Positions 21,907 through 63,706 of a stretch of 64,000 bases of DNA are shown here, piece by piece. Each line of letters opens with the position of its first letter. The stretch's first letter is position 1. This DNA comes from an uncultured bacterium (GTDB lineage Bacteria; Abyssobacteria; SURF-5). The notes under the pieces were generated by a model. The model had not been told where the DNA came from, did no database searches, and saw nothing but the letters and a program-made list of their open reading frames with translations. The stretch lies in the NCBI GenBank assembly GCA_964607485.1, contig CAZSKP010000007.1, forward strand, positions 85,539-149,538, in the 5' to 3' direction. The position numbers were made by a program, and so were the translations under genes.

Positions 21907-22007
21907 GTGCAGAGTTGAAAACGTTATCTACACTCTCTCAGAGCGATATTTGAACGGTCAGATGGGTGAAAGCTGCACTTTCAGTAGGTCGAGAGAAGTG
22001 CAGCTTC
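21907..22007 (+). repeat. ~100-bp module-boundary repeat, copy A
   Basis: GTGCAGAGTTGAAAACG...AGAGCGATATTTGAACG...GATGGGTG, then 11-bp perfect IR AAGCTGCACTT/AAGTGCAGCTT. Confidence 0.9.
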
Positions 22008-22050
22008 GAAAAGTCTCTTTGATTCCGGATCGGCCCATCACATGGCGAAG

Positions 22051-23283
22051 CTACCGCCTTCGCCCTCCACCCATACCTAGGCGCGGCCTACGACTGCGGA
22101 AAGTGCGGCCATTTCCTTGCGACCTTGCCTTGTGTTCCGGCGTCGGGGCGATTTCATGCTTGAATCCCGAAATCTCTTCGATCCGGATCTCGTGGCCAAG
22201 GAGCCGTTGGATATTGACCAGCAGCCCTCTCTCTTCGGCACAGACAAGCGACAACGCAACCCCCTCGGTTCCGGCTCTGCCGGTGCGGCCGATACGGTGG
22301 ACGTAATCCTCTGCAACATGGGGAAGTTCGTAATTGACCACGTGGGGGAGTCGGTCGATGTCCAAGCCACGAGAGGCAACGTCGGTGGCAACAAGGGTCC
22401 TTACCGCGCCACTCTTAAAATCGGCAAGGGCACGGGTGCGCGCAGCCTGGCTCTTGTTGCCGTGGATGGACGTGGTGCTGATACCGGCGGTCTTAAGCTG
22501 CTTTTCCAGCCTGTTGGCCCCGTGCTTTGTCTTGGTAAAGACCAGTACCTGACTCCAGTCGCCCTCCCTGATAAGGTGGCAGAGCAGTTCGCGCTTACGG
22601 GAGTGCCCCACCGGGTGAATCACCTGGGTCACAAGCTCTGCCGCCATATTGCGTCGGGTCGACACCTCGATGTACTCCGGTGAGTGGAGCAGCCTGTCGG
22701 ACAGATCCCTGATCGCGGCCGTATAGGTGGCGGAAAAAAGAAGGTTCTGGCGTTTCCGCGCAAGCAGCTTCGATATCCTGCGAATGTCGTGAATGAAGCC
22801 CATATCCAACATGCGGTCGGCCTCGTCCAGAATCAGTATCTCCACTTGCGAGAGGTTCACCGTGCCTCGCCCTGCGTGGTCGAGCAGGCGACCGGGCGTG
22901 GCCACGAGGATGTCCACCCCCTGGCGGAGCTGTCTGATCTGCGGGTTGATAGCCACACCGCCGAAGACCACCGCAGAACGCAGGCGGAGGTTCCTGCCGT
23001 ATGTCTCAACAAATTCGCGTACCTGGACGGCCAGTTCGCGCGTAGGGGTAAGCACCAAGGCGCGGGGGTTGCGTGATTTGCCATCCCGACTACTCAGCAG
23101 CTGCAGCATGGGCAACGCAAAGGCGGCGGTCTTACCTGTACCGGTCTGAGCGCCTGCGAGCACGTCGCGGCCCTTCAGGATCACAGGGATAGCCTGCACC
23201 TGTATGGGGGTCGGGGTCGTGTAGCCCCGTGCCGATACGGCACCGAGCAGTTCGGCCCGAAGGCCAAGTTGTTCAAAGGACAT
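22051..23283 (-). CDS. rhlE: DEAD-box RNA helicase RhlE-like
   Basis: [46 protein letters not shown]. Confidence 0.9.
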
Positions 23284-23908
23284 AAAATTACTCCTCAATC
23301 CGCCTCCTCAAGATTATTGAGCCGATCAAGGCCGATTAGTTAAGGTTGTTCTTCTCTGGGAGTGTGGTTGATAAAGAAAGGAATTAGCAACGACACAACG
23401 GAGCCTATCGGTGGGCGCCAAATTCACGATACATTTATTATAACACATGATACCTCGGATTACCAGGCTTATTTCAACTCCATCCATTTAGCGGAAGTAT
23501 CCTGTTAAGAGTCAAGAATATTATCACGGTAGAATCTCAGAGAAAGACTTCGCAGGCTTGTGCTGAAAAGCGTAGAACGGAAAATGAACTCCACACTTTC
23601 TCGGGACAATATTGAAGGTCGAATGGGTGATAACCTGCTTTCAGTCAACAGAAGAAGGCCAACCTTTGGACAATTATACGAAACAATTAATCTCACCGAG
23701 CTTCTGTTCAGGCCGATCTTCTTCAGTAGAGCAATATGCCTGATATCTGAACGCAGATTGAGTCTGCTTTTCAAATTCATAAAGATGACTCTGCATCTTC
23801 TCAGCCTTTTGTTTTGAAAAAGGTAGCTAATTTCGGACAATACATCGAGTAAGTGCAATCGCACATAGATGATTTGCTGCGGAGAAGCGTTCTCAATTGC
23901 TTCACATG

Positions 23909-24298
23909 CTAAGCATCGGTTTCAGCGACGCGGGCAAGTTCGCATCGGAAATAGTTCCGTATTTGAGGTGGATACTTGAAATCGATCGCGCCATGGAGTT
24001 TGAGACTGCGTTCATGTGCGTCATCTATATTGGCAAGAGTTTTGAAGGTAATTCGGATAGTACGGCCTTTAGAATCTCGTTCACCGTGTTCCAAATTCGG
24101 GGAACCTTTGTCGGATTGGGAATGTAGCCAAACCTTGACTACAGTCAATTCAGGCAAGAAGGGTTTGGCCGTTCCGATGACGTCTTTCACCAGCCATAGG
24201 TTCTCCTCATCAGTGAAGTCGGGGAACTTCTCGGAAAGGAAATCAAGAACCGGTCCTTCAACAGTAGTTCCATTGAATTTGATACCGCTTTTTCTCAT
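23909..24298 (-). CDS. hypothetical protein
   Basis: 129-aa ORF with GGAGG RBS upstream; no motif recognised. Confidence 0.5.
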   Translation of the reverse strand: MRKSGIKFNGTTVEGPVLDFLSEKFPDFTDEENLWLVKDVIGTAKPFLPELTVVKVWLHSQSDKGSPNLEHGERDSKGRTIRITFKTLANIDDAHERSLKLHGAIDFKYPPQIRNYFRCELARVAETDA

Positions 24299-26546: not shown

Positions 26547-26838
26547 TCTTTCCTGACGTGTCGGAGACAGCGCCGGTACAGGATAATCAGTTCGGCGGTT
26601 TCCTTTCGGAAGGCATTTGGATGGCTGAGATGGAGGGCCCAGAAAGGCAATCGCTTTCTTCTGTGTACAGTATATCATGGAAGACAAAATAATACTATCG
26701 AAAAGACTGTTTGGCGGACTTCCCCGTTCGCTCCTTGCGCTGCGCACGGCATCTGATGGGACCCAAACGTAGGCCGGAAGGGGCGTATTTCTCAGTGTGC
26801 GGAAGGGTGCGAATGAACTCAAGCGGAGTGTCCAGGCA

Positions 26839-26907
26839 ATGCAAAGTTGAAAACGAACTCTTCACTCTTGGGAAGGCGAACAGATACTTGAGTAATTCAA
26901 GGTTTTC
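26839..26907 (+). repeat. degenerate/deleted module-boundary repeat, copy J
   Basis: Head ATGCAAAGTTGAAAACGAACTCTTCACTC and tail TCAAGGTTTTC, middle missing. Confidence 0.6.
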
Positions 26908-29034: not shown

Positions 29035-29703
29035 TTACCGCAGAATAGAGAGAACGGCAAAGTAATGCATAACACTTCCACACAGTACAAAGACGTGCCA
29101 GACACCGTGATTGAATGGCATCTTCCGCCAAGCGTAAAATATCACGCCAACCGAATAGGAAATGCCGCCGACAAGCAACAAGACAAAGGTTTTATGCGGA
29201 ACCTCGCTTAACACTTCCCTTATCGCTATCAAGACCAACCATCCCATACACAGGTACATAGCAACCGACAATCTTCTGAACTTGGTGACGGTGATAGACT
29301 TTGTGGTAATGCCAATACCTGCAAGCGTCCAAGTGACTCCAAGTAAGCTCCACCCCCACGCACCCCTGAGGTTTACCAGCATGAATGGCGTATATGTTCC
29401 GGCAATCAAAAGGAAGATCGCGGCGTGGTCCAGCTTCTTAAAGACGAGTTTTGCCGATGGAGTCGAAAGACTGTGATAGAGGGTTGAAGCGACGTAGAGA
29501 ACTACGAGTGTGCCGCCGAAGATCGAAAAGCTCACGATATGCCAGGCGTTTCCATACGATGCAGCACACACTACCAGAAAACCCAGTCCGGCAATACTCA
29601 GCAATGCGCCAATTCCATGAGTGATTCCGCTGACGATTTCCTCACCAATACTACAGTACTGCACATGCATGTTCTGGCTGACTGCTACAGTCGATGGTAT
29701 CAT
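29035..29703 (-). CDS. hemolysin III / PAQR family membrane protein
   Basis: EEIVSGITHG, STLYHS, DHAAIFLLIAGTYTP, YLCMGW, HGVWHVFV. Confidence 0.9.
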   Translation of the reverse strand: MIPSTVAVSQNMHVQYCSIGEEIVSGITHGIGALLSIAGLGFLVVCAASYGNAWHIVSFSIFGGTLVVLYVASTLYHSLSTPSAKLVFKKLDHAAIFLLIAGTYTPFMLVNLRGAWGWSLLGVTWTLAGIGITTKSITVTKFRRLSVAMYLCMGWLVLIAIREVLSEVPHKTFVLLLVGGISYSVGVIFYAWRKMPFNHGVWHVFVLCGSVMHYFAVLSILR

Positions 29704-29873
29704 CTGCTGTTCTTCTTCCGAGCGGCCCTGGCTGTCTTCTTGCGCTTGCGTTCTTTTACCGGCGTAAAACGTTTACGCTCTCTAAGGCGCCTCTGATCGC
29801 CATCATCTGAAAGCTTCCTTTTTAGTCTCCGCAGCGCTTTATCAATATCGTCATTAACGAACACCTCAACCAT
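29700..29873 (-). CDS. rpsU: ribosomal protein bS21 homolog (57 aa, below the ORF track cutoff)
   Basis: Hand translation MVEVFVNDDIDKALRRLKRKLSDDGDQRRLRERKRFTPVKERKRKKTARAARKKNSR; AAAGGA RBS; ATGA overlap with the hemolysin III gene. Confidence 0.78.
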   Translation of the reverse strand: MVEVFVNDDIDKALRRLKRKLSDDGDQRRLRERKRFTPVKERKRKKTARAARKKNSR

Positions 29874-30063
29874 GGTAAATCCTTTCAGGTCCGTTCGTGT
29901 CTCGATGGGCTGCCTCCCAGCCCTCTAACCCAAAACACTTTGATTTTCCGCTGGTTCTGTCGCTCATGATCTTAGCCGTTTGGACATGGCCGAAGACCTC
30001 AAAGACACTTTGCAGATCAGTCTCAGTCGTTTCGGTTGACAGATTATCGATATAGATAATCAC
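29866..30063 (-). pseudogene. truncated RRM (RNP-1) RNA-binding protein
   Basis: IYIDNLS (RNP2), DLQSVFEVFG, IMSDRTSGKSKCFG (RNP1 start), then similarity is lost. Confidence 0.7.
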
Positions 30064-30562
30064 GCGGACCTCCGTGACATTTCTACGTTTACTGGCGGGG
30101 TGGAATTGTCATAAGACGCCTACCCATGTTTCCTGTTCCGGCAATGCATTGACAAGTCGAGCGTGGCGTCCCTATAAATTCCCCGCTCTCCCATGGCAGA
30201 TGGGATCGCCCGAATGAGACTTGCAGAGTTTTCCAAAAATTAGTCTGAAGATCAGATTCTCGGAATGAACTTCGTCAGGCTTGTCGGCACACTTTGGTGT
30301 GGACTTAAATGGAGAGTGAGCTTTCGGCCTGGCTTAAACGCCCAAGGTTAGGCTGATTCTTCGCTCAACGGCCCTTCTCTTCCTTTCGCGGCTTCCCGCA
30401 GATGTCTCCAGTATATACTTCGGGGTTCTCGATTGTCAAATCTCCCAAATTGACAAGTATCCCATGAAGCTGCTGAGAATTTCCGCGGCAACAGCATTAG
30501 CCGTTAAGGCAAAGGCCGCGAGACGCTCGCTTTCATCGATTATATGCAGGATCAGCTAGACC

Positions 30563-31572: not shown

Positions 31573-31685
31573 ACCCCTGTATTTTTGGCGTTTTTCTGCA
31601 ACCGAGTGCAATTCTTCTGATTTTGCAACTTAAAAACTTGCAATTACTTGCGAAATGGTACGATTTGCTGCAGAAGATCCTGGAA

Positions 31686-31711
31686 TGCCTTACAAGCAGG
31701 AGGTCACTGGT
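31686..31711 (+). mobile_element. tRNA-Val fragment (anticodon arm to T stem), attR-like
   Basis: TGCCTTACAAGCAGGAGGTCACTGGT, 24/26 identical to the tRNA. Confidence 0.85.
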
Positions 31712-32131
31712 GTTGAGTTTCAGCGCATTTGGGAGAGATGGTCAGAAGGGAAGTGGAGGGCGGCGGCAAAAGAGTCCAGCCTGCGCAGGTTTCCCGGGGA
31801 CTGGGTCATCGAGTTTGTTGAGGGGGGAGAGGACTATCTCTTCGGCTATGACATGCGAGAATGCGGTATTCATAAGTTCTGGCGTTCCAAGGGGCTTGAA
31901 GAATTTGTTCCCTATCTGTGTCTTACCGATTGGGCGAAGTGGAAATCGATTGGAGTAGCTGTCGAAAGAAGTCAGACCATCGCCAATGGGCACGAAGTAT
32001 GCGATTTCAGGTACTGCAGAGCGAAGAAAGCATGCCCGTCAGGATGGCCTCCGGAATCAAACCCCGAGTGGACCGGCAAATTCGAGAGAACCAATGGGGA
32101 CAGAATCGACAAGAAAACGGGTCCAGAGTGA
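31712..32131 (+). pseudogene. C-terminal fragment of an L-2-amino-thiazoline-4-carboxylate hydrolase-like (V4R-like) protein
   Basis: YDMRECGIHKFW, YLCLTD, RSQTIANGHEVCDFRY; N-terminus replaced by tRNA/att sequence. Confidence 0.7.
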
Positions 32132-32137
32132 TTCGTT

Positions 32138-32238
32138 CAAGCCTTGATTTTTCGCGTTCCCCGAAAGTGTAACCTCCACCCATCCAATCGTTCAAATATC
32201 GCTTCTGGCGAGTAAAGATAATGTTTTCTATTCTTCAC
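32138..32238 (-). repeat. ~100-bp module-boundary repeat, copy H
   Basis: Reverse complement: GTGAAGAATAGAAAAC...GAAGCGATATTTGAACGATTGGATGGGTGGAGGTTACACTTTC...AAAAATCAAGG. Confidence 0.88.
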
Positions 32239-32432
32239 TGATTTTGGCTTTCCAAAGACCTGATTCTCCGTCTCTATGTCCTTCCCGGTCGAACAAGTGA
32301 AGAAGCGCAGGGTGGAGTGCGCTTAGGCGCCGCTTCCCGGGACGCGGCAGCCGTCGGAACATGTGCCGCATCACCGATTTCTTTCGGTCCATGTCCACAG
32401 GAACGATGCATGGATTAGAACCGGAACCGTGT

Positions 32433-33446
32433 TCATGGTTTATGGCCAGTGACACGCTGGAGGATGTTGTGAACGAACTCTACAGCCTCGACCCGGGCGA
32501 AGCCGGCATCCTCCATATAGCCACAGACCTCGGCGTTGCTGTGGGCTCGTCCCTTGCTGCCCAGTAATGCTTCGTGTATCGACCACGTTGCAGCTATCAG
32601 CGGGCCGGTCTTCTGTTCGTTCAGGTTCTCCGCGATAATGTGCATCACCCCATTGGAAGGCAGCACCTGGAATGCTTTTGCAATGATATTTCGCGCCTCG
32701 TCTGGCCCGTATTGGGTAAGATTGCCGTTCAGCATCACGACATCCACACCTTCGGGAAAGGGATCGCTTGTGAAGTCCCCCGGATGCGTCTCGATGCGGT
32801 CGGACAAGCCCGCCTCCTCGACCAGTTCGTCGGTTACTCGACACACGTCGGCAAAATCGAACACGATCGCACGCAGATTAGGAAACCGGCGGCACAGTGA
32901 TACGCAATATGCGCCCGAGCCACCTCCTAGGTCGAGCACGAGGTTGTAGCTTGAGAAATCAAACCGTTTGGCGAGCTTGCTTCCTGCGCCCAGCCCGACG
33001 TTGAACATGGCACGCGTTAGCATCTCGGCCTGGTCGGTCGTCATCTTCTCGTAGATGCCGAGGACCGACGGCGGACTTGGATCGGTGAGCCGGTCGGCAA
33101 GATTGATCCACTGGGCGAAATCTCCCTTGCCCATGAGTGACCAAGCACCGAAGTAGCGCGGTTTGCCTTCCACAAGATAAATTTCGACGTCCGGGGCGTT
33201 GACGTAACGGTTGTCTCGTTTCTCAAGCAGGCCGAGCGCCGCACACGCAATGACAAGTCGCTCGGCGTTCAGGGGCGAGAGCCCGCACGCTAAGGCAATC
33301 TCCTCAGGGGTTGTGGCACCTTCGGAAACCTTTGTAAAGAGGCTCAGCTCGATGGCCGCCATCAATATACCCGAGTGCTTGAATCCGAAGCCGATGTTCT
33401 GAATTCTCTCGGTCCCGAGGCGAGGGCTGTCAGGCGAAGATGTCAT
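32433..33446 (-). CDS. SAM-dependent O-methyltransferase (Methyltransf_2 with dimerisation domain)
   Basis: AAIELSLF, LDLGGGSG, HPGDF, GVDVVML. Confidence 0.88.
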   Translation of the reverse strand: MTSSPDSPRLGTERIQNIGFGFKHSGILMAAIELSLFTKVSEGATTPEEIALACGLSPLNAERLVIACAALGLLEKRDNRYVNAPDVEIYLVEGKPRYFGAWSLMGKGDFAQWINLADRLTDPSPPSVLGIYEKMTTDQAEMLTRAMFNVGLGAGSKLAKRFDFSSYNLVLDLGGGSGAYCVSLCRRFPNLRAIVFDFADVCRVTDELVEEAGLSDRIETHPGDFTSDPFPEGVDVVMLNGNLTQYGPDEARNIIAKAFQVLPSNGVMHIIAENLNEQKTGPLIAATWSIHEALLGSKGRAHSNAEVCGYMEDAGFARVEAVEFVHNILQRVTGHKP

Positions 33447-33675
33447 TGGCCAGTTCTCCTTTCAGCGGCCACAGATGTGGTCTTGTGTTCAATCACGATT
33501 CCGTTTCTCCGATTCTCTTAGAGGATTTCTTGACTGCTGATCCTTCCGTGCGACAAAAAATAATTCTCTGGGACTTTCGAAACCGTATGGACTTCTGTCA
33601 TAAGCCCTGAATTATTCCTCCGCTACCATTAACAGCCAAAACAGTATAACACTTCCTTCCCTGAGCATTACACTT

Positions 33676-33776
33676 GAAAGTCTCACTTTCCCGGCCGCCT
33701 GAAAGTGCGCCTTCCACCCATCCAACCGTTCAATTGTCACTCTCAAAGAGTCAACAATACGTTTTCCATTCTGCAC
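33676..33776 (-). repeat. ~100-bp module-boundary repeat, copy G
   Basis: Reverse complement: GTGCAGAATGGAAAACG...GAGAGTGACAATTGAACGGTTGGATGGGTGGAAGGCGCACTTTC...GAAAGTGAG. Confidence 0.9.
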
Positions 33777-33870
33777 CGATTCTTGTTTCCCAACTTCCGC
33801 TCATTTGCCTTTCCATCCAGGGAAATGTGACCTTGCGGAACGGGCCGGCGACTGGTACAGGACGAGAGTT

Positions 33871-48501: not shown

Positions 48502-48731
48502 TCCCGCCTTTTCAGGTCCTCCCGATGGTACGTCCGAGTCAATTTTTGACTCATCTCATGGCAAAGCTCCCTTTCTTGAAATCGAGTAGTTCGAAGGCTA
48601 TAATCGTGTCTGGGATTTCATTGAGCGGATCTTCCTTGTGCCCGCTGCGATAAGGGGTGCAGTCCGTACGAAAACTTCATGCCGCCACGATGGGTTCAGT
48701 TCACCACTCACGAATCGCAATGGGAGGACAT

Positions 48732-50833: not shown

Positions 50834-50903
50834 AGGGCTTCATTGAGTATTGAAGTCCGGCACATTTTGCACAGATTCCCGGAAGATAAGTGCGATCTTT
50901 GTT

Positions 50904-50983
50904 GAGAGTTGTACTATTTTCAAGCCCCTGAAAGTGAAGGCATCGTCCATCCGATAGTGAAGAATCCGTTTTCAAATCTACAC
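50904..50983 (-). repeat. internally deleted module-boundary repeat, copy I
   Basis: Reverse complement: GTGTAGATTTGAAAACGGATTCTTCAC|TATCGGATGG...CACTTTC...AAATAGTAC; the AGAGCGAT-TTGAACG block is missing. Confidence 0.75.
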
Positions 50984-50998
50984 AGGTCCACTAGCTGA

Positions 50999-51400
50999 CT
51001 AAAACCCCAGTTCGATGTCTAGCACCCGCTGCAGACGTTTGTGGAATTTGCTTTTCGGCTGTCTATCCTTCAGTTCCCAATTGACCACTGTCATTTCATC
51101 CGCTCCCACCAATTCCGCAAGCTCCCTTATCATCAGCCCTCTGTCAATCCTTGCTTTTCTGATCGCCTCTCCAAGGCTGTTTGCATTCTCTGGATATTCA
51201 GGGTAGAATGCCTTTGGTGAAAGAGCAAATTGAATGGCATAGACACCGTTTTCGATACCGGTTGTTTTTAGGATATGTCCCACGGGTGACCGTTCATCAG
51301 GGTTTTTGGCCTGAAACTCTACGACCTGTGGCGCAGAGATTTCCATGATCTCTCGATCAATCTGTTTCCAGAGAGGACTCTGCATCGAAAAAACAGCCAT
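50999..51400 (-). CDS. XRE-family HTH domain protein
   Basis: YPENANSLGEAIRKARIDRGLMIRELAELVGADEMTVVNWE. Confidence 0.75.
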   Translation of the reverse strand: MAVFSMQSPLWKQIDREIMEISAPQVVEFQAKNPDERSPVGHILKTTGIENGVYAIQFALSPKAFYPEYPENANSLGEAIRKARIDRGLMIRELAELVGADEMTVVNWELKDRQPKSKFHKRLQRVLDIELGF

Positions 51401-51427: not shown

Positions 51428-51652
51428 CTAACTGGGTTTGATAGAAGACACGAATTGGTCGATTACCATCGTCAATGCAGTGCGCACCTCGGGAGATAGA
51501 CTCGCCCAAGCGTGCATAAGTCTCTTTATAGGGTGCCCGGCAGGTTCTTTAGCATATTTGGTGCAGAGAGCAATGTCTTGTTCCGTAGCACCTGTATTTT
51601 CAATGCCTTCTGGCTCTTCTTGTATTGGTTCGAGCCCAGTACCGCCCACCAT
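51428..51652 (-). CDS. short ORF starting antisense within the tRNA fragment
   Basis: MVGGTGLEP is the reverse complement of the tRNA 3' end; helical C-terminal part (RLMHAWASLSPEVRTAL). Confidence 0.35.
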   Translation of the reverse strand: MVGGTGLEPIQEEPEGIENTGATEQDIALCTKYAKEPAGHPIKRLMHAWASLSPEVRTALTMVIDQFVSSIKPS

Positions 51653-51658
51653 GTAACT
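51626..51658 (+). mobile_element. tRNA-Val 3' fragment (T arm, acceptor, CCA plus 7 nt flank), att-like
   Basis: TGGTTCGAGCCCAGTACCGCCCACCATGTAACT, 31/33 identical to 21578-21610. Confidence 0.88.
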
Positions 51659-51718
51659 GCTTGAAGCTCCTTATGTTATAAGCACCCTTGAATGCCCCCC
51701 GGATTTTTCTCTTCAAAC

Positions 51719-51740
51719 TGTGGCCCAAACTGTCTCACAA
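51719..51740 (+). repeat. arm-type repeat, copy 3
   Basis: TGTGGCCCAAACTGTCTCACAA followed by TCCACATTAT, as in copy 1. Confidence 0.65.
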
Positions 51741-51965
51741 AATTCCACATTATGTTGTATTAGTTTCCGCATGATCTTTATATATAAAGTAGAGCATCTG
51801 CCTATTTAGCAAGAAGCCGCACCGCCTCCGAAAGGTTTTCTTTAAATCCTGTCTGCTGTTTGGATGGGAGGATTCTCACGTAGAAAGCTTTGGTGAATAG
51901 CAGGACGGATATTCTTGACCGAGGGAACAACAACTAGTCTCATGAGATTCTTGGAACGTTGACCA

Positions 51966-52067
51966 GTGCAGAGTTGAAAACGGATTATGCACTCCCTTAG
52001 AGCGATGTTTAAACGCTCGGATGGGTGAGAGCTTCACTTTCGGGTGATGCCGAGAAGTCAAGGTTTC
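51966..52067 (+). repeat. ~100-bp module-boundary repeat, copy B
   Basis: GTGCAGAGTTGAAAACG...AGAGCGATGTTTAAACGCTCGGATGGGTG...CACTTTC...GAGAAGTCAAGGTTTC. Confidence 0.9.
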
Positions 52068-52323
52068 GTCAATATCGCGGCGTTCTATTCCTTCTGTTTA
52101 TGTTGCCTGCTGGGCATTGGCCCAAGGGAGATGGCGTGGGGACAAGGTCATGCGCGGTGGCAGGCGCGGGGCGCCTTGTGTAATTTTTGTGGATTTTTTT
52201 CGGCGATTTGCATTAACATAGAGCGACCGCTGGTACCATAACCGAGCACTTGTCAAGCGAGTGTTTGATACTCTCCTTTCTTATAATTCATCCATTTGCC
52301 GGCGGAAGAGGACGGGTGATAGT

Positions 52324-53203: not shown

Positions 53204-54376
53204 GTGACGGAAGTTGTCAGGTTTTCGTTTCCGACAATTGTCACTTATGGTCCGGGCGCCGTGAAGCAGTTGCCGCTGTGCCTGGAAGAAGTGGGGATGA
53301 CCAGGCCCCTGCTGCTCACAGATAGCGGGCTGACCAGAACGGATACGTTCAAGATGGTCGAAGCTGTACTGAAGGAATCCCAAGTTCCTTACGTCGTCTT
53401 TTCCGATGTGCATCCTAATCCCGCGACAGAAAATGTCGAAATGGCTCTCGAGCACTATCAGGCCAATGACTGCAACGGAGTTGTCGGTCTCGGCGGCGGA
53501 AGCGTCCTTGACGCCGCCAAGGTCATTCCGGTGAGAGCAGTCAATGATGGGCCCCTTACGAGATACGACGTCGAGACCGGCGGCAATGCGACCATCAGAG
53601 TGCCTCTGCCGCCGATGATAGCCATTCCCACTACCGCCGGAACCGGCTCTGAAGTGGGAAGATGTTCGGTGCTCACCGACCGCCGGCGCAGCGCGAAGTT
53701 TTTGGTCTGTCATCAGGAGATGATGCCACGCCGTGCCATTCTCGACCCGGAGTTGATCATTGGATTGCCCGCAGACCTTACCGCGGCAACGGGCATGGAT
53801 GCCTTCACTCACAATCTCGAGGCCCTGACGGTCGATGCGTTCCATCCCATGTGCGATGCGATAGCCTTGAAGGGCATCGAATATGTAGCGTCCTATCTCG
53901 AGCGAGCCGTCAAGAATCCGACCGACATCGAGGCGCGCGGACACATGATGATTGCGGCAATGATGGGAGCGGTCGCCTTTCAGAAAGACCTCGGCGCAGC
54001 TCATTCAATGGCGCATCCGTTGTCCACGCTGTGCGGTGTTCAGCATGGATTGGCGAATGCGATTTGTCTGATTCCCGTGATGAAGTTCAACCGCGAAGAA
54101 TCCGCCGCGAAATATGCCAAGGTCGCTCAATGTTTTGGGATAGATGTAAGCGGTTTGTCCGAACTCGAAGCGGCCGACAAAGCGATTGAGGCAGTAGCGG
54201 ACCTCAGCCGACGCATAGGAATTCCCCGTTCTCTGGCCCAGGTCGGCGTGACGGAAGACCAGTTGCCCGTGCTCGCAAAGAGTGCCGCTCTCGACATCTG
54301 CCACAGGACGAATCCCAGACCCTGCAGTGAGAAAGATTTTCTGATGCTGTACCGGCAGTCGTTTGCAGAGACTTGA
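53204..54376 (+). CDS. iron-containing alcohol dehydrogenase
   Basis: GLGGGSVLDAAK, AIPTTAGTGSE, GMDAFTH, AHSMAH, HGLANA. Confidence 0.93.
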   Translation: MTEVVRFSFPTIVTYGPGAVKQLPLCLEEVGMTRPLLLTDSGLTRTDTFKMVEAVLKESQVPYVVFSDVHPNPATENVEMALEHYQANDCNGVVGLGGGSVLDAAKVIPVRAVNDGPLTRYDVETGGNATIRVPLPPMIAIPTTAGTGSEVGRCSVLTDRRRSAKFLVCHQEMMPRRAILDPELIIGLPADLTAATGMDAFTHNLEALTVDAFHPMCDAIALKGIEYVASYLERAVKNPTDIEARGHMMIAAMMGAVAFQKDLGAAHSMAHPLSTLCGVQHGLANAICLIPVMKFNREESAAKYAKVAQCFGIDVSGLSELEAADKAIEAVADLSRRIGIPRSLAQVGVTEDQLPVLAKSAALDICHRTNPRPCSEKDFLMLYRQSFAET

Positions 54377-54393
54377 TTTCCTGGAGCTCGGAT

Positions 54394-56268
54394 ATGCCCG
54401 ACGGTTTCAATGGAATAATCCTGCGGATTAATCTCAACAGTTCGGGAATAGAACGCCACCAGTTCGACGACGCATTCTACCGGACGTATCTGGGCGGTTC
54501 AGCTATCGGCACATATTTCCTGCTGAAGGAGACATCCCCCGATACCGATGCTCTTGGCGAGGGGAATATTCTGACAATTGCGTGTTCGGTTGTCACGGGC
54601 GCACCGGTGAGCGGGCTCAGCAGGTTCTGCGTCACCGCCATCTCGCCCGAAACGGGAGCTGTCGGCGACACCCAGGCCGGCGGCAGTTTCGGGCCTCTGC
54701 TGAAGAGCGCGGGCTTCGACGCGATCGTCATCACCGGACGAGCCAAGAAACCGTGCTATATTCTTGTCGATGATGACACCGTTCAAATAGAAGATGCGGC
54801 AGAACTGACGGGACGGACCGTTCTTGAAGCGCATGATATTCTTTCAGGGGAGTATGGGCACAAGAGCGTAAGCGTCCTCCAGTGCGGGCCGGCCGGCGAA
54901 AGGCTCGTGCGGTTCGCCTGCCTCCTGGCTGACCTGAACGATGTGGCCGGGAGGACAGGAATGGGCGCGGTATTCGGCAGCAAGAACTTGCGGGCCGTTG
55001 TCGTGCGTTCCTCGAAGAAGCTTCATTTCGCCGATGCCGAGGGGATAAGACAGCTTGCCCGACTCGGTTCCGAGAACCTTTCCAAGTCGGAGTTTCCCGG
55101 TCTGCTTGCCAGGTACGGAACACCCGGCGTGCTGGGTCCGCAGGCTCGATCAGGCAACCTTTCGACGCATAATTATTCGAGAAGTTACCACGAAGACTAC
55201 CAGCGGCTCGACGGTTCTGAGTTTGAGCCGAAGATCGGCGCCGGCAAGACGACCTGTTTTGCCTGCGTGGTCGGGTGCCGTAAGAAGGTGAAATGCCGGC
55301 AGCCATACGAAGTAACCGACCGGCTTGGCGGACCCGAATTTGAGACCCTCGGTCTGCTGGGCGCTAACCTCGATATAACCGACCCCGTAGCCGTCGCCAA
55401 AGCCAATGAGTTGTGCAACAACTATGGGATCGACACCATCACGATGGGCGCTCTGGCGGCATACCTTTTTGAGTGCGTGGAGAGCGGGCTCATTTCCGCC
55501 GAAGAGCTTGCCGAGGGAAGAACCTTGAGGTTCGGCAACGCGGACGCATTGCTGTGGCTTATCGAGCAGGTTGCCAATCGTCAGGGCATCGGCGACCTCC
55601 TGGCCGAAGGATTCGAAGCTGCTGTGAAGAAACTCGGCCCCGCCACGGCCCAGTGCGCGATCAATGTCAAGAACCATGGCCTTCCGGCCCACATGGCACA
55701 GGTCAAACCCAGCCAGGCCCTGATGTACGCGGTATGTCCCATCGGGGCGGATCACATGTCGTCGGAACACGACTGGCTGTTGACATCCGACTCCGAAGCC
55801 GGCAAGGGCTTGGGGATCCTTGGCCGCGGCACAGCCGCCAGTTGCGACCTCGGCAAGGTGCGGATGACGGTCTATTCCCAGTATTACTACAGCCTGCTCG
55901 ATGCGCTGTGCCTCTGCATGTTCTGCTGGGGACCCGGAAGTCTGTTCGATTACCGATGCCTCGAACAGCTCCTCCGCTGCGCTACCGGCTGGGAATGCAC
56001 ATTCTGGGAGCTGATGAAGGTCGGACAGCGACGGGTCAACATGATGCGTCAGGTGAACGCCAAGAGAGGCTTTTCGCGCAAGGAAGACAGCCTCCCCGCG
56101 AGACTGTTTGAACCTTTGCCCGATGGGCCGGCCAAAGGAAGATGCGTGAGCAGGAAGGACTTTCCCAGGATGCTGGACCAGTATTACGCCCTGATGGGCT
56201 GGGATCCGCAATCCGGGAACCCGACGGAGGGCGTTCTTCTTGAGCTGGGACTCGACTGGACGATGTGA
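54394..56268 (+). CDS. aldehyde:ferredoxin oxidoreductase family protein (W/Mo)
   Basis: ISPETG, GPAGE, AGRTGMGAVFGSKNLRAV, CFACVVGC, GPEFET, NNYGIDT, GWDPQSGNP. Confidence 0.9.
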   Translation: MPDGFNGIILRINLNSSGIERHQFDDAFYRTYLGGSAIGTYFLLKETSPDTDALGEGNILTIACSVVTGAPVSGLSRFCVTAISPETGAVGDTQAGGSFGPLLKSAGFDAIVITGRAKKPCYILVDDDTVQIEDAAELTGRTVLEAHDILSGEYGHKSVSVLQCGPAGERLVRFACLLADLNDVAGRTGMGAVFGSKNLRAVVVRSSKKLHFADAEGIRQLARLGSENLSKSEFPGLLARYGTPGVLGPQARSGNLSTHNYSRSYHEDYQRLDGSEFEPKIGAGKTTCFACVVGCRKKVKCRQPYEVTDRLGGPEFETLGLLGANLDITDPVAVAKANELCNNYGIDTITMGALAAYLFECVESGLISAEELAEGRTLRFGNADALLWLIEQVANRQGIGDLLAEGFEAAVKKLGPATAQCAINVKNHGLPAHMAQVKPSQALMYAVCPIGADHMSSEHDWLLTSDSEAGKGLGILGRGTAASCDLGKVRMTVYSQYYYSLLDALCLCMFCWGPGSLFDYRCLEQLLRCATGWECTFWELMKVGQRRVNMMRQVNAKRGFSRKEDSLPARLFEPLPDGPAKGRCVSRKDFPRMLDQYYALMGWDPQSGNPTEGVLLELGLDWTM

Positions 56269-57676: not shown

Positions 57677-57733
57677 TCCTCTCCGCGTAATATCTCGGTA
57701 GGAGAATCATGGCAGCCGAAACAGACCGGAATG

Positions 57734-57835
57734 GTGCAGAGTTGAAAACGTAATCTTCACTCGCCAAGAGCGATGTTTGAACGATTGGAAGGGTGGAAGC
57801 TGCACTTTCGGATGGGTTCGAAAAGTCAAGGTTTC
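57734..57835 (+). repeat. ~100-bp module-boundary repeat, copy C
   Basis: GTGCAGAGTTGAAAACGTAATCTTCACTC...AGAGCGATGTTTGAACGATTGGAAGGGTGGAAGCTGCACTTTC...GAAAAGTCAAGGTTTC. Confidence 0.9.
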
Positions 57836-57939
57836 AGCAATTATCCAGAGCGATTTATCTTAACGATCATTTGGCCAAGCCGATCTTCTCTAGCATCCTA
57901 CAAAGCGTGATGCCTAATGGCTAGATGTCGATCCGCTGG

Positions 57940-58857
57940 TCAATCGCGGCCTCTCAGCATGGCTAGTTCGGTGATGTAGTGTTTCCAGTAGTGGGTCTTG
58001 CGTTCGTACTTGCAGTACTTACGCTGGTCGGCGGTGATGCGGCACAGAAACCTCCTCACAAAGTAGCGGATCAGTCTCCACCGGGCCTGGATGGCTCTGA
58101 ACCTCCTGCCGCGAACCAGGACATCCACATACGCCTTGCTGCGGGCGACCTTTACGCACCTCTCCCATACATACTCCTTCGTCATTCGCTCAGGAAAATA
58201 CTCATGAACTACGACGGCTGCGGGCTGGTACAGCAGTTTCTCACCACCCTCCTTGAGCCGCGTGCCGAATTCCGTGTCTTCATGTGATCCCGACGCTCCT
58301 GCGCCCAGGTGAACGTCAAAAAGACCATGCTTCTGAAACATGCGCTTGAGGATCGCCATGTTGGCGCCCACAAGCGATCCGCAGTAGTGCGGCGTCGGCC
58401 CCCGGTCGTAGTATGGGTGCACAAACATTCGTTCTTCGACCAGCCACGGCGGCACGCTGTCCGTTTTTTCTTCACGGAGGAGAATCTTTCCCTGAATGGC
58501 TGCGACCTCGGGATGCGCGGCGAACGCATCGCGAATTGCCTCCAGCCACCGTTCGTCGACGACCACGTCGTCGTCAGTGAACGCGATGATCTCTGCCCGG
58601 GCGCGCTCGACGGCAGAATTGCGCGCATAGGAGAGCCCCTTGCGCGGCTCGAAGTAGTAGGCATACTTGCCGGGGTGTCTCTCCACAAAAGCTTGCACGA
58701 CATCGCGCGTATCTTTGATCGTCGATCCGTTATCAACAACCAGGACTTCGTAGGTCAGGCCATCCGGAACCTTCAGCTTCTCGATGCTATCGAGGGCTCG
58801 AGCGAGCAGGTCCCGGCGGTTCCGCGTACAGATTGCGACGCTGATACCGACGCTCAT
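57940..58857 (-). CDS. glycosyltransferase family 2 (close paralog of 47402-48334)
   Basis: SVAICTRNRRDLL, KLKVPDGLTYEVLVVDNGS, AFTDDD, GANMA, HEDTE. Confidence 0.9.
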   Translation of the reverse strand: MSVGISVAICTRNRRDLLARALDSIEKLKVPDGLTYEVLVVDNGSTIKDTRDVVQAFVERHPGKYAYYFEPRKGLSYARNSAVERARAEIIAFTDDDVVVDERWLEAIRDAFAAHPEVAAIQGKILLREEKTDSVPPWLVEERMFVHPYYDRGPTPHYCGSLVGANMAILKRMFQKHGLFDVHLGAGASGSHEDTEFGTRLKEGGEKLLYQPAAVVVHEYFPERMTKEYVWERCVKVARSKAYVDVLVRGRRFRAIQARWRLIRYFVRRFLCRITADQRKYCKYERKTHYWKHYITELAMLRGRD

Positions 58858-58905
58858 GTCCCACACTTACCTTTCTAACGCAAACTTGTTTCTTTCACTC
58901 TGCGA

Positions 58906-59941: not shown

Positions 59942-60349
59942 TCAGGCACTGCGTTTACCACAATCACGAAATAACCTCCGTTGCCACGACTGCGGGTGCT
60001 GCCACTCCTGGCTCCGAAACACCAGGGCGTCAACCGCCTGTCGGACATTGGGATCATCGATATGCTCAAGCATCTCTTCATAGAAAAAGAGAACATGCTT
60101 CGGCGCACGAGACAAGCGGTCGATGGGTTCACACAGTGAACTGCCCCGAACAGTGGTACCAGCTTCCCCCATATTGAGGCAAGATGGTTCCCGAGCTTTT
60201 TCGGTTTTTCCAGTTTGATGATACTCACTGAACTCCGTGATCTCAAGGAAATGACTATTGGATAAGGACAAGTTATATTTGAACCAGTCGTATGGATATT
60301 CCTCACTGGCGTAAAACCCATGAAGGACGGTAGTACAAGGCCTGGAAGC
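59942..60349 (-). pseudogene. possible gene fragment abutting repeat copy K
   Basis: The track ORF begins inside the repeat remnant; the downstream part looks protein-like; family not recognised. Confidence 0.35.
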
Positions 60350-60402
60350 GTGAAGAATAGAAAACGAAATGTGCACTTTCCGGGAGGATGAATAACGTGC
60401 AA
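60350..60402 (+). repeat. collapsed module-boundary repeat, copy K
   Basis: GTGAAGAATAGAAAACGAAATG|TGCACTTTC...GTGCA: head joined directly to the second hairpin. Confidence 0.6.
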
Positions 60403-60673
60403 AATTGGAACCGAGGCTGCACTTATCAGGACGCAGATAAGCGAGACTTTCGACTTCGCGCGATGGCTGGCTCTGTCAATGAGTAGACCTGACCCTCTAT
60501 GCTTCCCCACACTTCTAATATGGGGACGATTTCGCTGCCGTCGAAAAAGATGTCCAGGAAATAGCGCTCCGCATTATGGTTCCCTTTGATATTCGCCTCC
60601 TTGACATTTGTCGTCCTTGTCCCTTTTTGATTTATAGACATATCCTGTTGAGGAAATTCTACCACATGTGCCA

Positions 60674-61465: not shown

Positions 61466-61466
61466 T

Positions 61467-62483
61467 TTATACCTCGTCTTCCCAGTCCTCGTCTTCTTCG
61501 AATTCGAGCTTCATAACCTCCCGGATCGTATCCACGATGCCGTTCGCATCCAGCCTGTAATAGGCATAGAGATCCTCGGGATATCCCACCTCACTGTAAA
61601 TGTCCGGAAGTCCCAGTTTCCTGAAGGCGCATCCCTTTCCGCTTTCGGCGATAACGTCGGCAACAGCGCTTCCAAGACCGCCAAGAACGTTATGCTCTTC
61701 CACCGTAATGATCCTTCGAGTATCCACTACTGCCTTCATGACCGCATCCCTGTCGATGGGTTTGATGGTGTGCATATTGATGATCCTGACCGAAAGGCCG
61801 TCTGTCTCTTCCAGGGTGCGGGCGGCCTCGGCGGATTGGAGAACGCCTATTCCGCACGTAATGATCGTCAAGTCGGTTCCGTCCTGTATCGTGTGGGCCT
61901 TGCCGATTTGAAAACCGTAGCCCTCGGTGTCGTAGTAAGGTGGCTCGAATCCCCTCCCGATGCGGATATAAACCGGTCCGGGCACATCCACACAGGCCCT
62001 CACCGCATTGGCCGTTTCCGTTCCGTCGGCAGGGACGATGACCGTCATGTTGGCGAAGCTTCTCATGATAGCAATATCTTCCGTACAGTGATGGGTTGTG
62101 CCGGCCGCGCCGAAGCTTATCCCGGAATGGGTGGCAATTATCTTGACGGGCAGGTTCTGGTAGCAGATATCCGTTCGCACCTGCTCTGCGGCCCTCATGC
62201 TGGCGAAAACTGCGAACGTGCTGGCAAAGGGGATCAGACCCATCTTGGCCATTCCCGCCGCCACACCCATCAGGTTCTGTTCGGCTATCCCCACGTTGAA
62301 AAAATGGTTCGGGCGTTCCTTCTCGAAGAGCGCAATGGCTGTGGACTTGGCCAGGTCCGCAGACAGCCCCACGAGCTTATCGTTGGTTTTACTCATCTCC
62401 GCCAGCACGCGGCCATATATCTCCCGCGCCGTCATGGTACTGGCGTCGTAACATGTCCAGGTGGTTCCAGTTCCGTCGCTCAT
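61467..62483 (-). CDS. transketolase C-terminal subunit
   Basis: LSADLAKST, NVGIAEQN, RAAEQVR, GTTHH, GPVYIR, TIKPID, EEHNVLGGLG. Confidence 0.92.
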   Translation of the reverse strand: MSDGTGTTWTCYDASTMTAREIYGRVLAEMSKTNDKLVGLSADLAKSTAIALFEKERPNHFFNVGIAEQNLMGVAAGMAKMGLIPFASTFAVFASMRAAEQVRTDICYQNLPVKIIATHSGISFGAAGTTHHCTEDIAIMRSFANMTVIVPADGTETANAVRACVDVPGPVYIRIGRGFEPPYYDTEGYGFQIGKAHTIQDGTDLTIITCGIGVLQSAEAARTLEETDGLSVRIINMHTIKPIDRDAVMKAVVDTRRIITVEEHNVLGGLGSAVADVIAESGKGCAFRKLGLPDIYSEVGYPEDLYAYYRLDANGIVDTIREVMKLEFEEDEDWEDEV

Positions 62484-63340
62484 GCCTGCACTCCCTTTAA
62501 GATTGCCTCATACATCTTTTCTATCGAGGTATGCGCCTGTTCCTTGAGTTCCGCATCCACCGACCCATAATGCCAGGGGACCTGACCCTCCATGAAAGAG
62601 ATACCCTTTCCCTTTATCGTATTGGCGATGATGGCCACGGGTCGTTCCGTGGCGCCGAGAGCCTTCTCTATCGCTTCGGACAAGGCGTTCATGTCGTGCC
62701 CGTCCACCGTGACCACCTCCATTCCAAAGGCCTTGAGTTTGTCCTGTAGCGGTTCGATTCCCATCACCTTTTCGGTCGGACCGTCGATCATCAGCCGGTT
62801 CCGGTCGATGATGGTCACCAGATTGGTCAACTTATAGTGAGCAGCCGCCATGAAGGCTTCCCAGACACTTCCCTCATTACATTCGCCGTCACCCAAGATG
62901 CAGTACACTTTCAGGCCTTTGCCGAGCACCCGCGCGCCAAGGGCCATTCCCACGGCCATGGACAGGCCATGCCCCAGGGAACCGGTGGAGGCATCGCATC
63001 CACACACCTTCTGGGAATCGGGGTGCATCCCGAAGGGACTCTTGAATTTGTTGAAGGTCTTCAGTTCCTCGACATCGAAAAATCCGCGTCTCGCCAATAC
63101 CGGCGCGTACGCCACAGCAGCATGGCCCTTGCTCAAAACGAGACGGTCCCTGTCTTCCCAGCACGGGTCTTCAGGGTTGATGTTCAGATACTTGAAATAA
63201 AGGATGGTCAAAATGTCGATGACACTCAGTCCTCCGCCGATATGCGCTCCACCTGCCCAACTGGTTACGTCAACGATATCCTTTCTCAGTTGTTTGGCCT
63301 GGGCATATAATTTCTGCCCCTCATCTTTCGTTAGTGCCAT
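62480..63340 (-). CDS. transketolase N-terminal (TPP-binding) subunit
   Basis: HIGGGLS, DRLVLSKGH, TGSLGHG, GDGECNEG, DGHD, TIKGKG, WH. Confidence 0.92.
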   Translation of the reverse strand: MALTKDEGQKLYAQAKQLRKDIVDVTSWAGGAHIGGGLSVIDILTILYFKYLNINPEDPCWEDRDRLVLSKGHAAVAYAPVLARRGFFDVEELKTFNKFKSPFGMHPDSQKVCGCDASTGSLGHGLSMAVGMALGARVLGKGLKVYCILGDGECNEGSVWEAFMAAAHYKLTNLVTIIDRNRLMIDGPTEKVMGIEPLQDKLKAFGMEVVTVDGHDMNALSEAIEKALGATERPVAIIANTIKGKGISFMEGQVPWHYGSVDAELKEQAHTSIEKMYEAILKGVQA

Positions 63341-63605
63341 ACGCTTTCTCCTTCTCTTCTTATTTCAACCGGATCCAGATAGCCGCCCAACCGACCGATT
63401 TTCATCATTAAGAGCTCCATCCGGACCACCCTTTCTCCAATGCCCTAGTATATACCATCACGCGCCAATTCCAAAATAGCCGATGACAAACGTGCCAATT
63501 TCAAACGAGAAAAGGTTTCGGGAAGTCAACCATCGATGTGGAAAGGTGAATATTGTTCGCCGGCGGAAGGAGGCGGGATTCCAAATGAGTGAGGCGTCTC
63601 ACCCT

Positions 63606-63706
63606 GTACATCTTTGAAAACGGAATGTTGACTCACCGAGAGCGATATTTGAACGAGCGGATGGGCGGAAGTTGCACTTCTAGGAATCAGAAATAGTAGG
63701 GTTTTC
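63606..63706 (+). repeat. ~100-bp module-boundary repeat, copy D
   Basis: GTACATCTTTGAAAACGGAATGTTGACTC...GAGAGCGATATTTGAACGAGCGGATGGGCGGAAGTTGCACTT...AAATAGTAGGGTTTTC. Confidence 0.88.

Follow-up and report, generated by a model that had tools for sequence, protein, structure and literature searches.

A candidate family of interspersed intergenic repeats with two hairpins in Abyssobacteria

Introduction

ERIC, BOX and REP repeats are non-coding, lineage-specific sequences of about 100–150 nt with hairpin potential, which occupy the gaps between bacterial transcription units in either orientation; to our knowledge, the way in which they spread is largely unknown. The present study concerns a repeated unit with a core of about 115 nt, found in a 64,000-nt stretch of contig CAZSKP010000007.1 (positions 85,539–149,538, forward strand). 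This whole stretch is referred to below as the window, and all coordinates are counted in it. An initial annotation, made from the sequence alone, had interpreted the unit as a recombination, nicking or end site, through which multi-gene modules are stacked into a tRNA-anchored array. The analysis presented here leans, tentatively, towards another interpretation, where the unit represents a previously undescribed lineage-specific family of interspersed intergenic repeats of the general REP/ERIC/BOX kind.

In the REPIN–RAYT system, the copying of non-autonomous hairpin-bearing extragenic units is ascribed to an enzyme whose single-copy gene lies elsewhere; such units can persist in a lineage for a long time and have no classical inverted ends (PMC3337134, PMC3116915). 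Integration at a tRNA gene has a signature of its own, a full tRNA gene accompanied by a partial 3' copy; serial integration at one tRNA gene, with partial tRNAs and degraded elements, has been described for tycheposons (bioRxiv 10.1101/2020.12.28.424599). As for the lineage, the description of its genomes places Abyssobacteria within Hydrogenedentes, and the main text of that description does not contain the words repeat, mobile, transposase, integron or island (PMC6121073).

Results and Discussion

Copies of the Repeat in the Window

A mechanical repeat search recovered the family as the direct families D1–D6 and the inverted pairs I3–I13. An nhmmer profile built from the eight full copies listed in the initial annotation found all of them (E-values from 5e-35 to 2e-30), together with the three copies that had been recorded as deleted or degenerate (at 50904 on the minus strand and at 60350 and 26839 on the plus strand) and three more. 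The window thus contains 14 copies, eight full, five degenerate or truncated and one marginal, with seven copies on each strand. The same census was obtained with a later profile of 24 copies and with a covariance model, the 24-copy set being the 26 copies compared in this study less the two that are interrupted by a contig end, in the related loci L002 and L004. By the covariance model, the full copies have a length of 123–125 nt, in agreement with the near-constant length noted before. Genes lie between the copies, which are spaced 1.5–12 kb apart, and the units are 64–83% alike. A degenerate pattern of 29 positions, taken from the central block described below, matched the window eight times and had no match in each of 100 shuffled sequences. 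Bases 1–21,600 gave no match with E < 1 to the 8-copy profile, the 24-copy profile or the covariance model, so the 21.6-kb left part is indeed free of copies, as first reported.

Full copies of the short form are located at 21900–22025 (plus strand; nhmmer E 8e-34, covariance model 118 bits), 32121–32246 (minus), 33661–33783 (minus), 48386–48503 (minus; up to 48508 at its widest) and 57727–57851 (plus). The long form is found at 45701–45903 (minus; core 45780–45903, 3' extension to about 45701), 51959–52159 (plus; core 51959–52088, 3' extension to about 52159) and 63599–63807 (plus; core 63599–63722, 3' extension to about 63807). All these assignments were made with nhmmer; they were accompanied by the covariance model for the copies at 21900, 32121, 33661, 45780, 48386, 57727 and 63599, by BLAST for those at 45780, 51959, 57727 and 63599, by the alignment of the tRNA spacers for 51959, and by Pfam searches of the adjoining genes for 32121, 33661, 48386 and 57727.

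The remaining copies show various degrees of decay. A degenerate full-length copy lies at 23567–23679 (plus; nhmmer E 6e-6, covariance model 28 bits) and another degenerate copy at 60343–60457 (plus; E 9e-8). The copy at 50899–50989 (minus; from 50895 at its widest) has lost most of the central block through a 22-nt internal deletion, as seen in the nhmmer alignment. Only the 5' third is left at 26837–26874 (plus; E 2e-4, profile positions 9–46) and 39163–39202 (minus; E 8e-5), and a marginal fragment at 44139–44186 (minus; E 0.016, but 0.09 with the 24-copy profile) represents the 3' hairpin part alone; the copies at 23567, 39163 and 44139 are those that the initial annotation did not contain. 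The family therefore forms a series of full, internally deleted, 5'-third-only and 3'-part-only copies, in addition to its two size classes, and the truncated copies have different end points. The orientations along the window are arranged in blocks (+++ ------- ++++), with an exact runs test giving P = 0.004 for all 14 copies and P = 0.11 for the eight full ones.

Anatomy of the Unit

All-versus-all BLAST comparison of 1.2-kb pieces around the 26 copies delimited the short form to about +5 to +115 and the long form, of about 180 nt, to about +178. The latter is represented by three of the eight full copies in the window and by seven copies of relatives; weaker similarity reaches about +240 in a few copies. 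On the other side, about ten of the 26 copies have some 100 nt of weak upstream similarity in common, resembling the repeat-proximal part of the spacer that follows the tRNA-Val gene. The 5' edge is discrete, the family-wide information content rising over two bases from about zero to above 1 bit, and the 3' end point varies among copies.

Two unrelated hairpins about 35 nt apart flank an unpaired, conserved central block, the central third or so of the unit being unpaired. The 5' hairpin, carrying a conserved GAAAACG loop, begins 8 nt from the 5' edge, and the 3' hairpin reaches as far as the 3' border of the short form. The central block, 29 nt long, is the best conserved part, with a mean pairwise identity of 0.84 compared to 0.66 for the rest of the unit, 0.76 for the 5' hairpin region and 0.60 for the 3' hairpin region. 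These values come from 11 copies not selected by the pattern (eight from the window and three found only by the profile in the flanks of other hits); conservation of the block in the relatives is partly a matter of construction, because the relatives were picked by the central-block pattern. Inside the block, the alignment contains a candidate 19-bp dyad, imperfect and weak, of two CGAT-type half sites 9 nt apart.

The conserved centre and its dyad raise the question of whether the unit is a DNA platform on which a regulator or a nucleoid-associated protein binds the central block. A palindromic site works in either orientation, which would match the random direction of the units relative to genes (see below). 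However, the conservation of more than 100 nt of flanking sequence and a kept hairpin would be superfluous for a binding site, the neighbouring genes have no common function, no candidate protein is linked to the copies, and the dyad itself is weak. This explanation seems to be the least probable of those considered here, and quite improbable.

A coding function was rejected, since several of the eight full window copies have stops in each of the six frames and the variability shows no 3-base periodicity; the best antisense frame also bears stops in several of the 26 copies. An antisense micro-ORF (open reading frame) of about 20–30 codons with a conserved stop was noticed in the 3' extension of the long form (45701–45780, 52089–52159 and 63723–63807 in the window, and the related loci L003, L006 and L012–L015). 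It is intact in six of the ten long copies and frame-shifted or start-less in the other four, and there is no ribosome-binding site at a workable distance; it is probably not a gene.

Folding of the Hairpins

RNAalifold predicted the 3' hairpin on the plus strand, and almost nothing on the minus strand, for eight copies, but almost no consensus structure for 24 copies. On the sequence-only alignment of the 24 copies, both measures of structure are weak: 73.9% of the cells in the proposed stems are paired, compared to 72.9% in shuffled alignments (76 of 500 shuffles are as high), and 26 of 500 shuffles match the covariation score. On the alignment fitted by the covariance model, which is biased towards structure, 80.5% of the cells are paired compared to 77.6% in shuffles, and none of 500 shuffles reaches either the percentage or the covariation score; sliding the 3' partner by 1–3 columns lowers the pairing to 35–54%. 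In the same fitted alignment, the 3' hairpin has 84.9% of its cells paired, with seven of its 12 pairs changed on both sides, and the 5' hairpin 72%, with many mismatched cells. When folded alone, the 5' hairpin region has z < -1.64 in eight of 24 copies and the 3' region in nine of 24; the 5' hairpin is intact in only about one-third to two-thirds of copies. Because the fitted alignment leans towards structure, the comparison is taken to indicate that the 3' hairpin is kept through compensatory changes, and that only some of the copies have kept the 5' hairpin. Of the anatomy first proposed, a 5' inverted repeat, a middle block and a 3' inverted repeat, the latter two are thus borne out and the first only in part.

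Two further pairings were rejected. In one predicted fold, the 5' edge of the unit was paired over a long distance with the 5' strand of the 3' hairpin, but this pairing has no matching changes across copies, and a helix joining the ACTC and GGGT motifs shows no covariation in the 24 copies.

These features bear on the possibility that each copy is a small RNA gene or another RNA element, i.e., that the family consists of sibling small RNAs, where the unpaired centre would pair with a target or bind a protein and the hairpins would stabilise the molecule. A conserved single-stranded centre between hairpins, which drift in sequence with the pairing kept, would suit such a molecule, and the independence of the copies from the direction of their neighbours is like that of stand-alone genes. 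The plus strand is also favoured by the 3' hairpin region, which folds better on it (mean folding energy of -10.3 versus -7.6 kcal/mol on the minus strand), and by the 3' hairpin itself, having 38 G.T cells versus 15 A.C cells in the alignment fitted to the plus-strand model; the ratio is opposite in the 5' hairpin (4 to 9). The whole-unit fold, though, barely beats shuffled sequences (mean z of about -0.5 on the plus strand and about -1.0 on the minus strand, in 20 of 24 copies), and the near absence of a consensus from RNAalifold and the weak covariation on the non-fitted alignment point the same way. Upstream, the information content stays at about zero up to the unit edge, with no promoter-like conservation; no terminator-like hairpin followed by a T run was found at the copies. 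Both negatives are weak, since the promoters of the phylum are unknown. Rfam searches of 20 kb of the window and five related loci gave no match on the copies even at E-values up to 5, tRNA-Val being the only match in the window above the gathering score; a known Rfam family was among the findings that the initial annotation had named as speaking against its own proposal, and none has turned up. We regard an RNA element as unlikely, though as the next in probability after the interspersed repeat.

Placement between Genes

The copies are confined to gaps between transcription units. A hand tally based on the ORF lists and Pfam searches, covering the window and the relatives, gave 16 divergent and 15 co-directional neighbours on the 5' side, and 15 convergent and 12 co-directional neighbours on the 3' side; the direction of the unit is unrelated to the neighbouring genes. 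The lack of any fixed relation speaks against the unit being a leader, terminator or promoter cassette and fits a selfish insertion or a stand-alone element. The unit as a carrier of a promoter was rejected on this ground, as divergent 5'-side neighbours (16 of 31) are not enriched, and also because upstream of the unit the information is at most 0.6 bits at every position, with nothing promoter-like conserved, and sigma-70-like matches occur on the antisense strand of two copies only. These matches (nine of 12 positions) lie antisense to the copies at 45780 and 51959, at 45849–45878 (plus) and 52013–51984 (minus); their first hexamer falls within the conserved central block, and other copies fit the second hexamer less well.

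Pfam searches confirmed the neighbouring genes named in the initial annotation, where unrelated modules had been described on both sides of the copies, except for katG, which is not visible in the window, the latter ending 278 nt past the core of the last copy. The repeat does separate operon-like modules, but it fills just those gaps that are long enough for it, so the separation by itself says little. The copy at 32121–32246 lies between convergent genes of an ATC_hydrolase and an O-methyltransferase, and that at 33661–33783 between genes of a TetR protein and an O-methyltransferase, co-directional with both. No integrase or transposase was found among 102 window ORFs (67 + 35), 95 stop-to-stop frames of the gaps and 45 ORFs of the related loci.

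Four pairs of paralogues inside the repeat-rich segment, encoding ATC_hydrolase (31655–32131 and 34856–35392), O-methyltransferase (32433–33446 and 44564–45574), GT2 glycosyltransferase (47402–48334 and 57940–58866) and aldehyde:ferredoxin oxidoreductase (48968–50833 and 54373–56268), point to segmental duplication within the region. The GT2 genes are 73–79% alike in DNA (I1, I2, I9), and each has a copy of the repeat antisense to it and close behind its stop codon: the copy at 48386–48503 lies 52 nt past the stop of the gene 47402–48334, and that at 57727–57851 lies 89 nt past the stop of the paralogous gene 57940–58866 on the minus strand. Probably, the GT2 gene and the repeat were duplicated together.

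The MacB operon lies between two fragments of the repeat, one being a 3' part and the other a 5' third. The latter, at 39163–39202, directly adjoins the remnant of an AcrB-type gene, a 94-aa ORF at 38811–39095 (minus) whose match to the AcrB/AcrD/AcrF profile is limited to its last 60 positions (ACR_tran, 962–1020 of 1021), which places a rearrangement breakpoint here.

Some genes of the segment look like housekeeping genes rather than cargo. Genes of ribosomal protein S21 and an RRM-type RNA-binding protein occupy 29703–30108 (minus), in a seemingly empty 0.9-kb gap, and a DEAD-box helicase gene is found at 22051–23298.

Copies in Related Genomes

To find relatives, a collection with one genome for each of 185,579 species, evidently lacking the genome studied itself, was scanned once with the strict central-block pattern, taking 2-kb flanks. 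The scan yielded 16 loci, and a profile search of them found a true copy in 15, with 18 distinct copies in at least six metagenome-assembled genomes (MAGs). These are Candidatus Abyssobacteria bacterium SURF_17, four MAGs named 'uncultured bacterium' (with five, four, two and one loci) and one short contig binned as Pseudomonadota. The remaining match, in a Desulfobacterales MAG (L016), has 13–18 bits over part of the unit; it was judged to be a chance match and excluded from all counts. The literature searched gave no match to an 18-nt motif of the central block.

The neighbours of the copies in the relatives are ordinary genes with no relation to those of the window; they include genes of P-II, GlnA, a Ser/Thr kinase, an MFS transporter, URO-D, an amidase, parts of 2-hydroxyglutaryl-CoA dehydratase and cytochromes. 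A tblastn search with the window ORFs of at least 90 aa against the related loci gave one weak hit only and no synteny, and no recombinase, integrase or transposase was found near the copies in the 15 loci.

In SURF_17, five co-oriented copies lie within 7 kb of a 99-kb contig, 1.0–1.8 kb apart, with one gene between each pair. Both pattern matches of this MAG, which comprises 4.6 Mb in 144 scaffolds (PMC6121073), fall in this 7-kb stretch. Only two of the five copies fit the pattern, so a handful of copies elsewhere could be missed, but not many.

The identity between copies averages 70% and does not exceed 86%, those of the same genome being no closer to each other than those of different genomes. 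This picture is biased, because contigs end inside or near the repeat: L002 ends at about repeat position 95 and L004 starts at about position 72, so that two contigs break inside the unit, and a contig end is no more than 1.3 kb away from nine of the 13 true loci outside SURF_17. Probably, there are further copies that are more alike and break the assemblies.

Additional fragments of the unit accompany full copies in two loci (L011, 1148–1179; L008, 409–450 and 1016–1162), the one in L011 being a 5' hairpin fragment 16 nt upstream of the full copy; they suggest local partial duplication.

Duplicated End of tRNA-Val

The repeat-rich segment begins, as had been stated initially, at a tRNA: a tRNA-Val gene with the anticodon TAC (21527–21603, plus strand; ARAGORN and Rfam RF00005, 73.9 bits) lies at its left edge. 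The last 27 nt of this gene, which comprise the T arm and everything up to the CCA end, are found again 30 kb downstream in the same direction, at 51626–51652 (plus; D8), as a partial tRNA-Val made up of the T arm and the 3' acceptor strand only. Pairwise alignment shows that the spacer between the full gene and the first copy (21604–21899, plus) is homologous to 51653–51958 (D8, D11), so that the plus-strand copies at 21900 and 51959 each stand about 300 nt past the full gene or the partial one. The tRNA end, the spacer of about 300 nt and the plus-strand copy are all duplicated, with a mean column identity of 77% over the whole stretch; the homology has its left limit precisely at the T arm, extends about 450 nt past the tRNA end and stops at the 3' hairpin of the repeat, and there is none further upstream. 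Copies of the repeat have thus been carried along in a segmental duplication comprising the tRNA-Val 3' end, the spacer and the repeat. No tRNA or spacer fragments occur beside the other copies of the window, where a tRNA fragment adjoins only two of 14, and the related loci contain no tRNA genes and have no tRNA fragment or distal spacer beside their 18 copies.

A 132-aa ORF next to the partial tRNA-Val (50999–51397, minus) weakly resembles helix-turn-helix repressors of the XRE type (DicA, MqsA and RstR models), with scores that stay under the family cut-offs. Genes of such repressors are common at the ends of integrated elements.

Like a tycheposon, the locus has a full tRNA gene and a direct partial 3' copy bounding about 30 kb of compositionally distinct genes; it differs in having no integrase or integrase fragment, one partial tRNA only, a homology that continues for about 450 nt past the tRNA end and 12 further copies without a tRNA fragment. 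The repeat might, then, be part of the conserved end of islands that integrated serially into the 3' end of tRNA-Val, where each arrival would push older islands inward and the inner copies would be remnants of the older ones. The full and the partial tRNA, each followed by the homologous spacer and by a plus-strand copy at the same distance, are in accordance with this idea, as is the published description of serial integration at one tRNA gene cited in the Introduction. The sequence of about 100 nt resembling the repeat-proximal spacer, kept by about ten of 26 copies, and the repressor-like ORF also agree with it. Against it stand the scarcity of the tRNA fragment or distal spacer (two of 14 window copies, none of 18 in relatives), the absence of an integrase or its remnant, the inversion of the middle block of copies, the spacing of 1–1.8 kb in SURF_17, which is too short for islands, and the presence of ribosomal protein S21 and other housekeeping-type genes inside the supposed island. 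An origin from island ends is considered doubtful, somewhat ahead of the protein platform.

The GC content at third codon positions (GC3) is 0.53–0.73 for every gene to the right of tRNA-Val (22051–63340) and 0.78–0.85 for most genes to the left (1–21424), which encode, e.g., MTHFR, glutamate-synthase-like proteins, a P-type ATPase and an ABC protein. The two described Abyssubacteria MAGs have an average GC content of 54.7–54.8% (PMC6121073); if the GC content of the genome studied is similar, the repeat-rich part is the typical one and the left flank the unusual one. Within this otherwise high-GC flank, two 33-nt inverted repeats (85% complementary) surround a low-GC patch at 13246–14717 with a 328-aa ORF (13444–14430, minus; GC 0.37, GC3 0.34) that has no Pfam or NCBIfam match; the patch looks like a foreign, possibly insertion sequence-like, insertion. 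A 1005-aa ORF at 14588–17605 (minus) and two ORFs of about 400 aa at 7151–9623 (minus) have no Pfam or NCBIfam match either.

Comparison with Described Elements

A CRISPR array consists of near-identical direct repeats of 24–48 nt with short spacers of similar length; units of about 115 nt that are 64–83% alike and 1.5–12 kb apart, with genes between, do not conform to this plan. Nor does the unit resemble a miniature inverted-repeat transposable element. When the first 30 nt of each of the 24 copies are compared with the reverse complement of its last 30 nt, the longest match has a mean length of 4.6 nt compared to 4.2 nt in shuffles, giving no sign of terminal inverted repeats, and the longest direct match across the edges, which are certain to a few bases, averages 4.25 nt compared to 4.12 nt, giving no sign of a target-site duplication. 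Both elements, together with attC, had already been set aside in the initial annotation. No match to one long copy was found in plasmid and phage records.

The attC sites of integrons carry the inverse core boxes RYYYAAC ... GTTRRRY at their two ends, and none of the 24 copies has such boxes near its ends on either strand. Like the unit, attC sites are repeats of about 60–140 nt between unrelated genes, where the fold matters more than the sequence in part of the site; clusters of attC sites without an integrase exist, and the SURF_17 array likewise consists of co-oriented sites with single genes between them. However, an attC site is a near full-length imperfect palindrome, whereas the unit has two local hairpins and its centre rather than its ends is conserved. 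Moreover, attC sites are co-oriented and cassette genes mostly have one direction, unlike the window, with its seven plus and seven minus copies and multi-gene operons of both directions between them. Even in SURF_17, where the five copies are co-oriented, the genes between them alternate in direction, unlike integron cassettes. No integron integrase was detected; neither the window nor the related loci encode a Phage_integrase domain or that of another recombinase.

The ERIC, BOX and REP repeats have no sequence relation to the unit, and their structure is one long imperfect palindrome instead of two different hairpins with an unpaired centre. They number tens to hundreds of copies throughout the chromosome, while the unit, as far as the MAGs show, has few and locally clustered copies. 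Long and short modular forms are common to the unit and BOX elements. A REPIN consists of two inverted copies of one short REP palindrome, in contrast to the two unrelated hairpins and the conserved centre of the unit, and no RAYT gene (HUH tyrosine transposase) was found in the window or the related loci. Miniature elements of the IS200/IS605 kind (palindrome-associated transposable elements) have hairpins near both ends and neither inverted ends nor target duplications, and their strand-specific logic could yield blocks of orientation. The unit likewise lacks inverted ends and target duplications, and of its two hairpins the 5' one is intact in only about one-third to two-thirds of copies. 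It differs from them in the lack of conserved target bases at the 5' edge (at most 0.6 bits) and in having no conserved sequence beyond the 5' hairpin; no tnpA or tnpB was found in the window or the related loci, and the copies match no Rfam transposon-associated RNA family. The intergenic mosaic elements of Neisseria with dRS3 are also mosaic intergenic units, placed where the gene content of strains differs, but the Neisserial arrays consist of units bounded by 20-bp inverted repeats, which serve as integration sites of a known phage, and nothing comparable is seen for the unit.

The Repeat as a Possible Joining Site

The proposal of the initial annotation, in the form considered here, makes the repeat the joining site of an unknown module-accretion system, parallel to integrons but unrelated to attC, where modules of one to five genes, each accompanied or adjoined by one repeat, would be joined by an enzyme encoded elsewhere at existing repeats, the recombination, nicking or end sites of the system; the arrays would be the 42-kb one anchored at tRNA-Val and the 7-kb one of SURF_17. 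The local clustering, the orientation blocks and the duplicated tRNA end keep this proposal alive: all 14 copies are found to the right of tRNA-Val, within 42 kb, and the 21.6 kb on its other side have none, the co-oriented SURF_17 copies with single genes between them hold the only pattern matches of that MAG, and the repeat is kept in every genome amid wholly different flanking genes. The shift of base composition to the right of the tRNA and the order of the fragments around the MacB operon, which is that expected for a unit cut inside the repeat, agree with it as well.

Several observations do not fit a joining site. A site-specific enzyme acting on one array with both orientations would keep inverting pieces of 10–30 kb, and the genes between the co-oriented copies of SURF_17 alternate in direction. 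No recombinase or remnant of one has been found in the window or the 15 loci, none of the 24 copies has the inverse core boxes, and only two of 14 copies adjoin a tRNA fragment. A fixed crossover point was rejected: linkage over 29 variable columns is uniformly low, with r2 of 0.07 in the left half, 0.04 in the right half and 0.04 between them, giving no sign of one. In addition, the truncations end at differing positions, the copies of four other MAGs are distributed over two to five different contigs each, and the truncation on the MacB side abuts the broken AcrB gene and looks like an illegitimate event. The segment is not pure cargo either, as it holds the genes of ribosomal protein S21, the DEAD-box helicase and the RRM protein, and its base composition would be the typical one if the GC content of the genome is like that of the described MAGs. 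The proposal is unproven rather than refuted, as none of the refuting results named in the initial annotation was fully obtained; its descriptive part (a non-coding repeat in gaps, a tRNA anchor, clustering) was upheld, and the stacking of modules by recombination or nicking is without direct support. A joining site is held to be unlikely, behind the RNA element and before the island end.

Nature and Spread of the Repeat

The interspersed intergenic repeat remains the foremost reading, put forward tentatively. Its copies have spread along with segmental duplications, as in the case of tRNA-Val. Rare copying in trans by an enzyme encoded elsewhere, acting on the hairpins in single-stranded DNA, may be a second route; it is suggested by the discrete 5' edge, the position of a hairpin at either end of the short form, the missing terminal inverted repeats and target duplications, and the unrelated genes around the copies in each genome. 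The seams between transcription units would be the only places that tolerate the element, and the loose segment to the right of tRNA-Val would offer many seams; the repeat would then mark the seams and not create them. Contigs ending at the repeat are expected if more similar, assembly-breaking copies exist.

A number of observations weigh against an interspersed repeat. The copy number looks low and clustered, unlike REP-type families, with 14 copies in 42 kb of the window and an adjoining 21.6 kb that are free of them, the SURF_17 pattern matches are confined to the 7-kb stretch with its five co-oriented copies, and the orientation in the window is arranged in blocks, as the runs test for the 14 copies indicated more clearly than that for the eight full ones. 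No recent burst is visible at identities of at most 86%, although MAG assembly hides near-identical copies, and no mobilising enzyme was seen in the window or the loci. Conservation of the central block above that of the ends is the reverse of what is usual for transposon relics, and the better-kept centre hints at a function in place.

On balance, the readings are ranked, from the most to the least probable, as an interspersed repeat, RNA elements, an accretion site, the end of tRNA-Val islands and a protein platform, with the remainder left for unforeseen readings. Many lineage-specific interspersed repeats are known in bacteria, and the family adds one more, none having been described before in Abyssobacteria. 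In practice, the family, or the variable DNA around it, breaks metagenome assemblies; it marks variable parts of genomes, and it can now be searched for with a model. If the arrays were indeed built at the repeat, they would represent a second, independent solution to the capture of gene cassettes.

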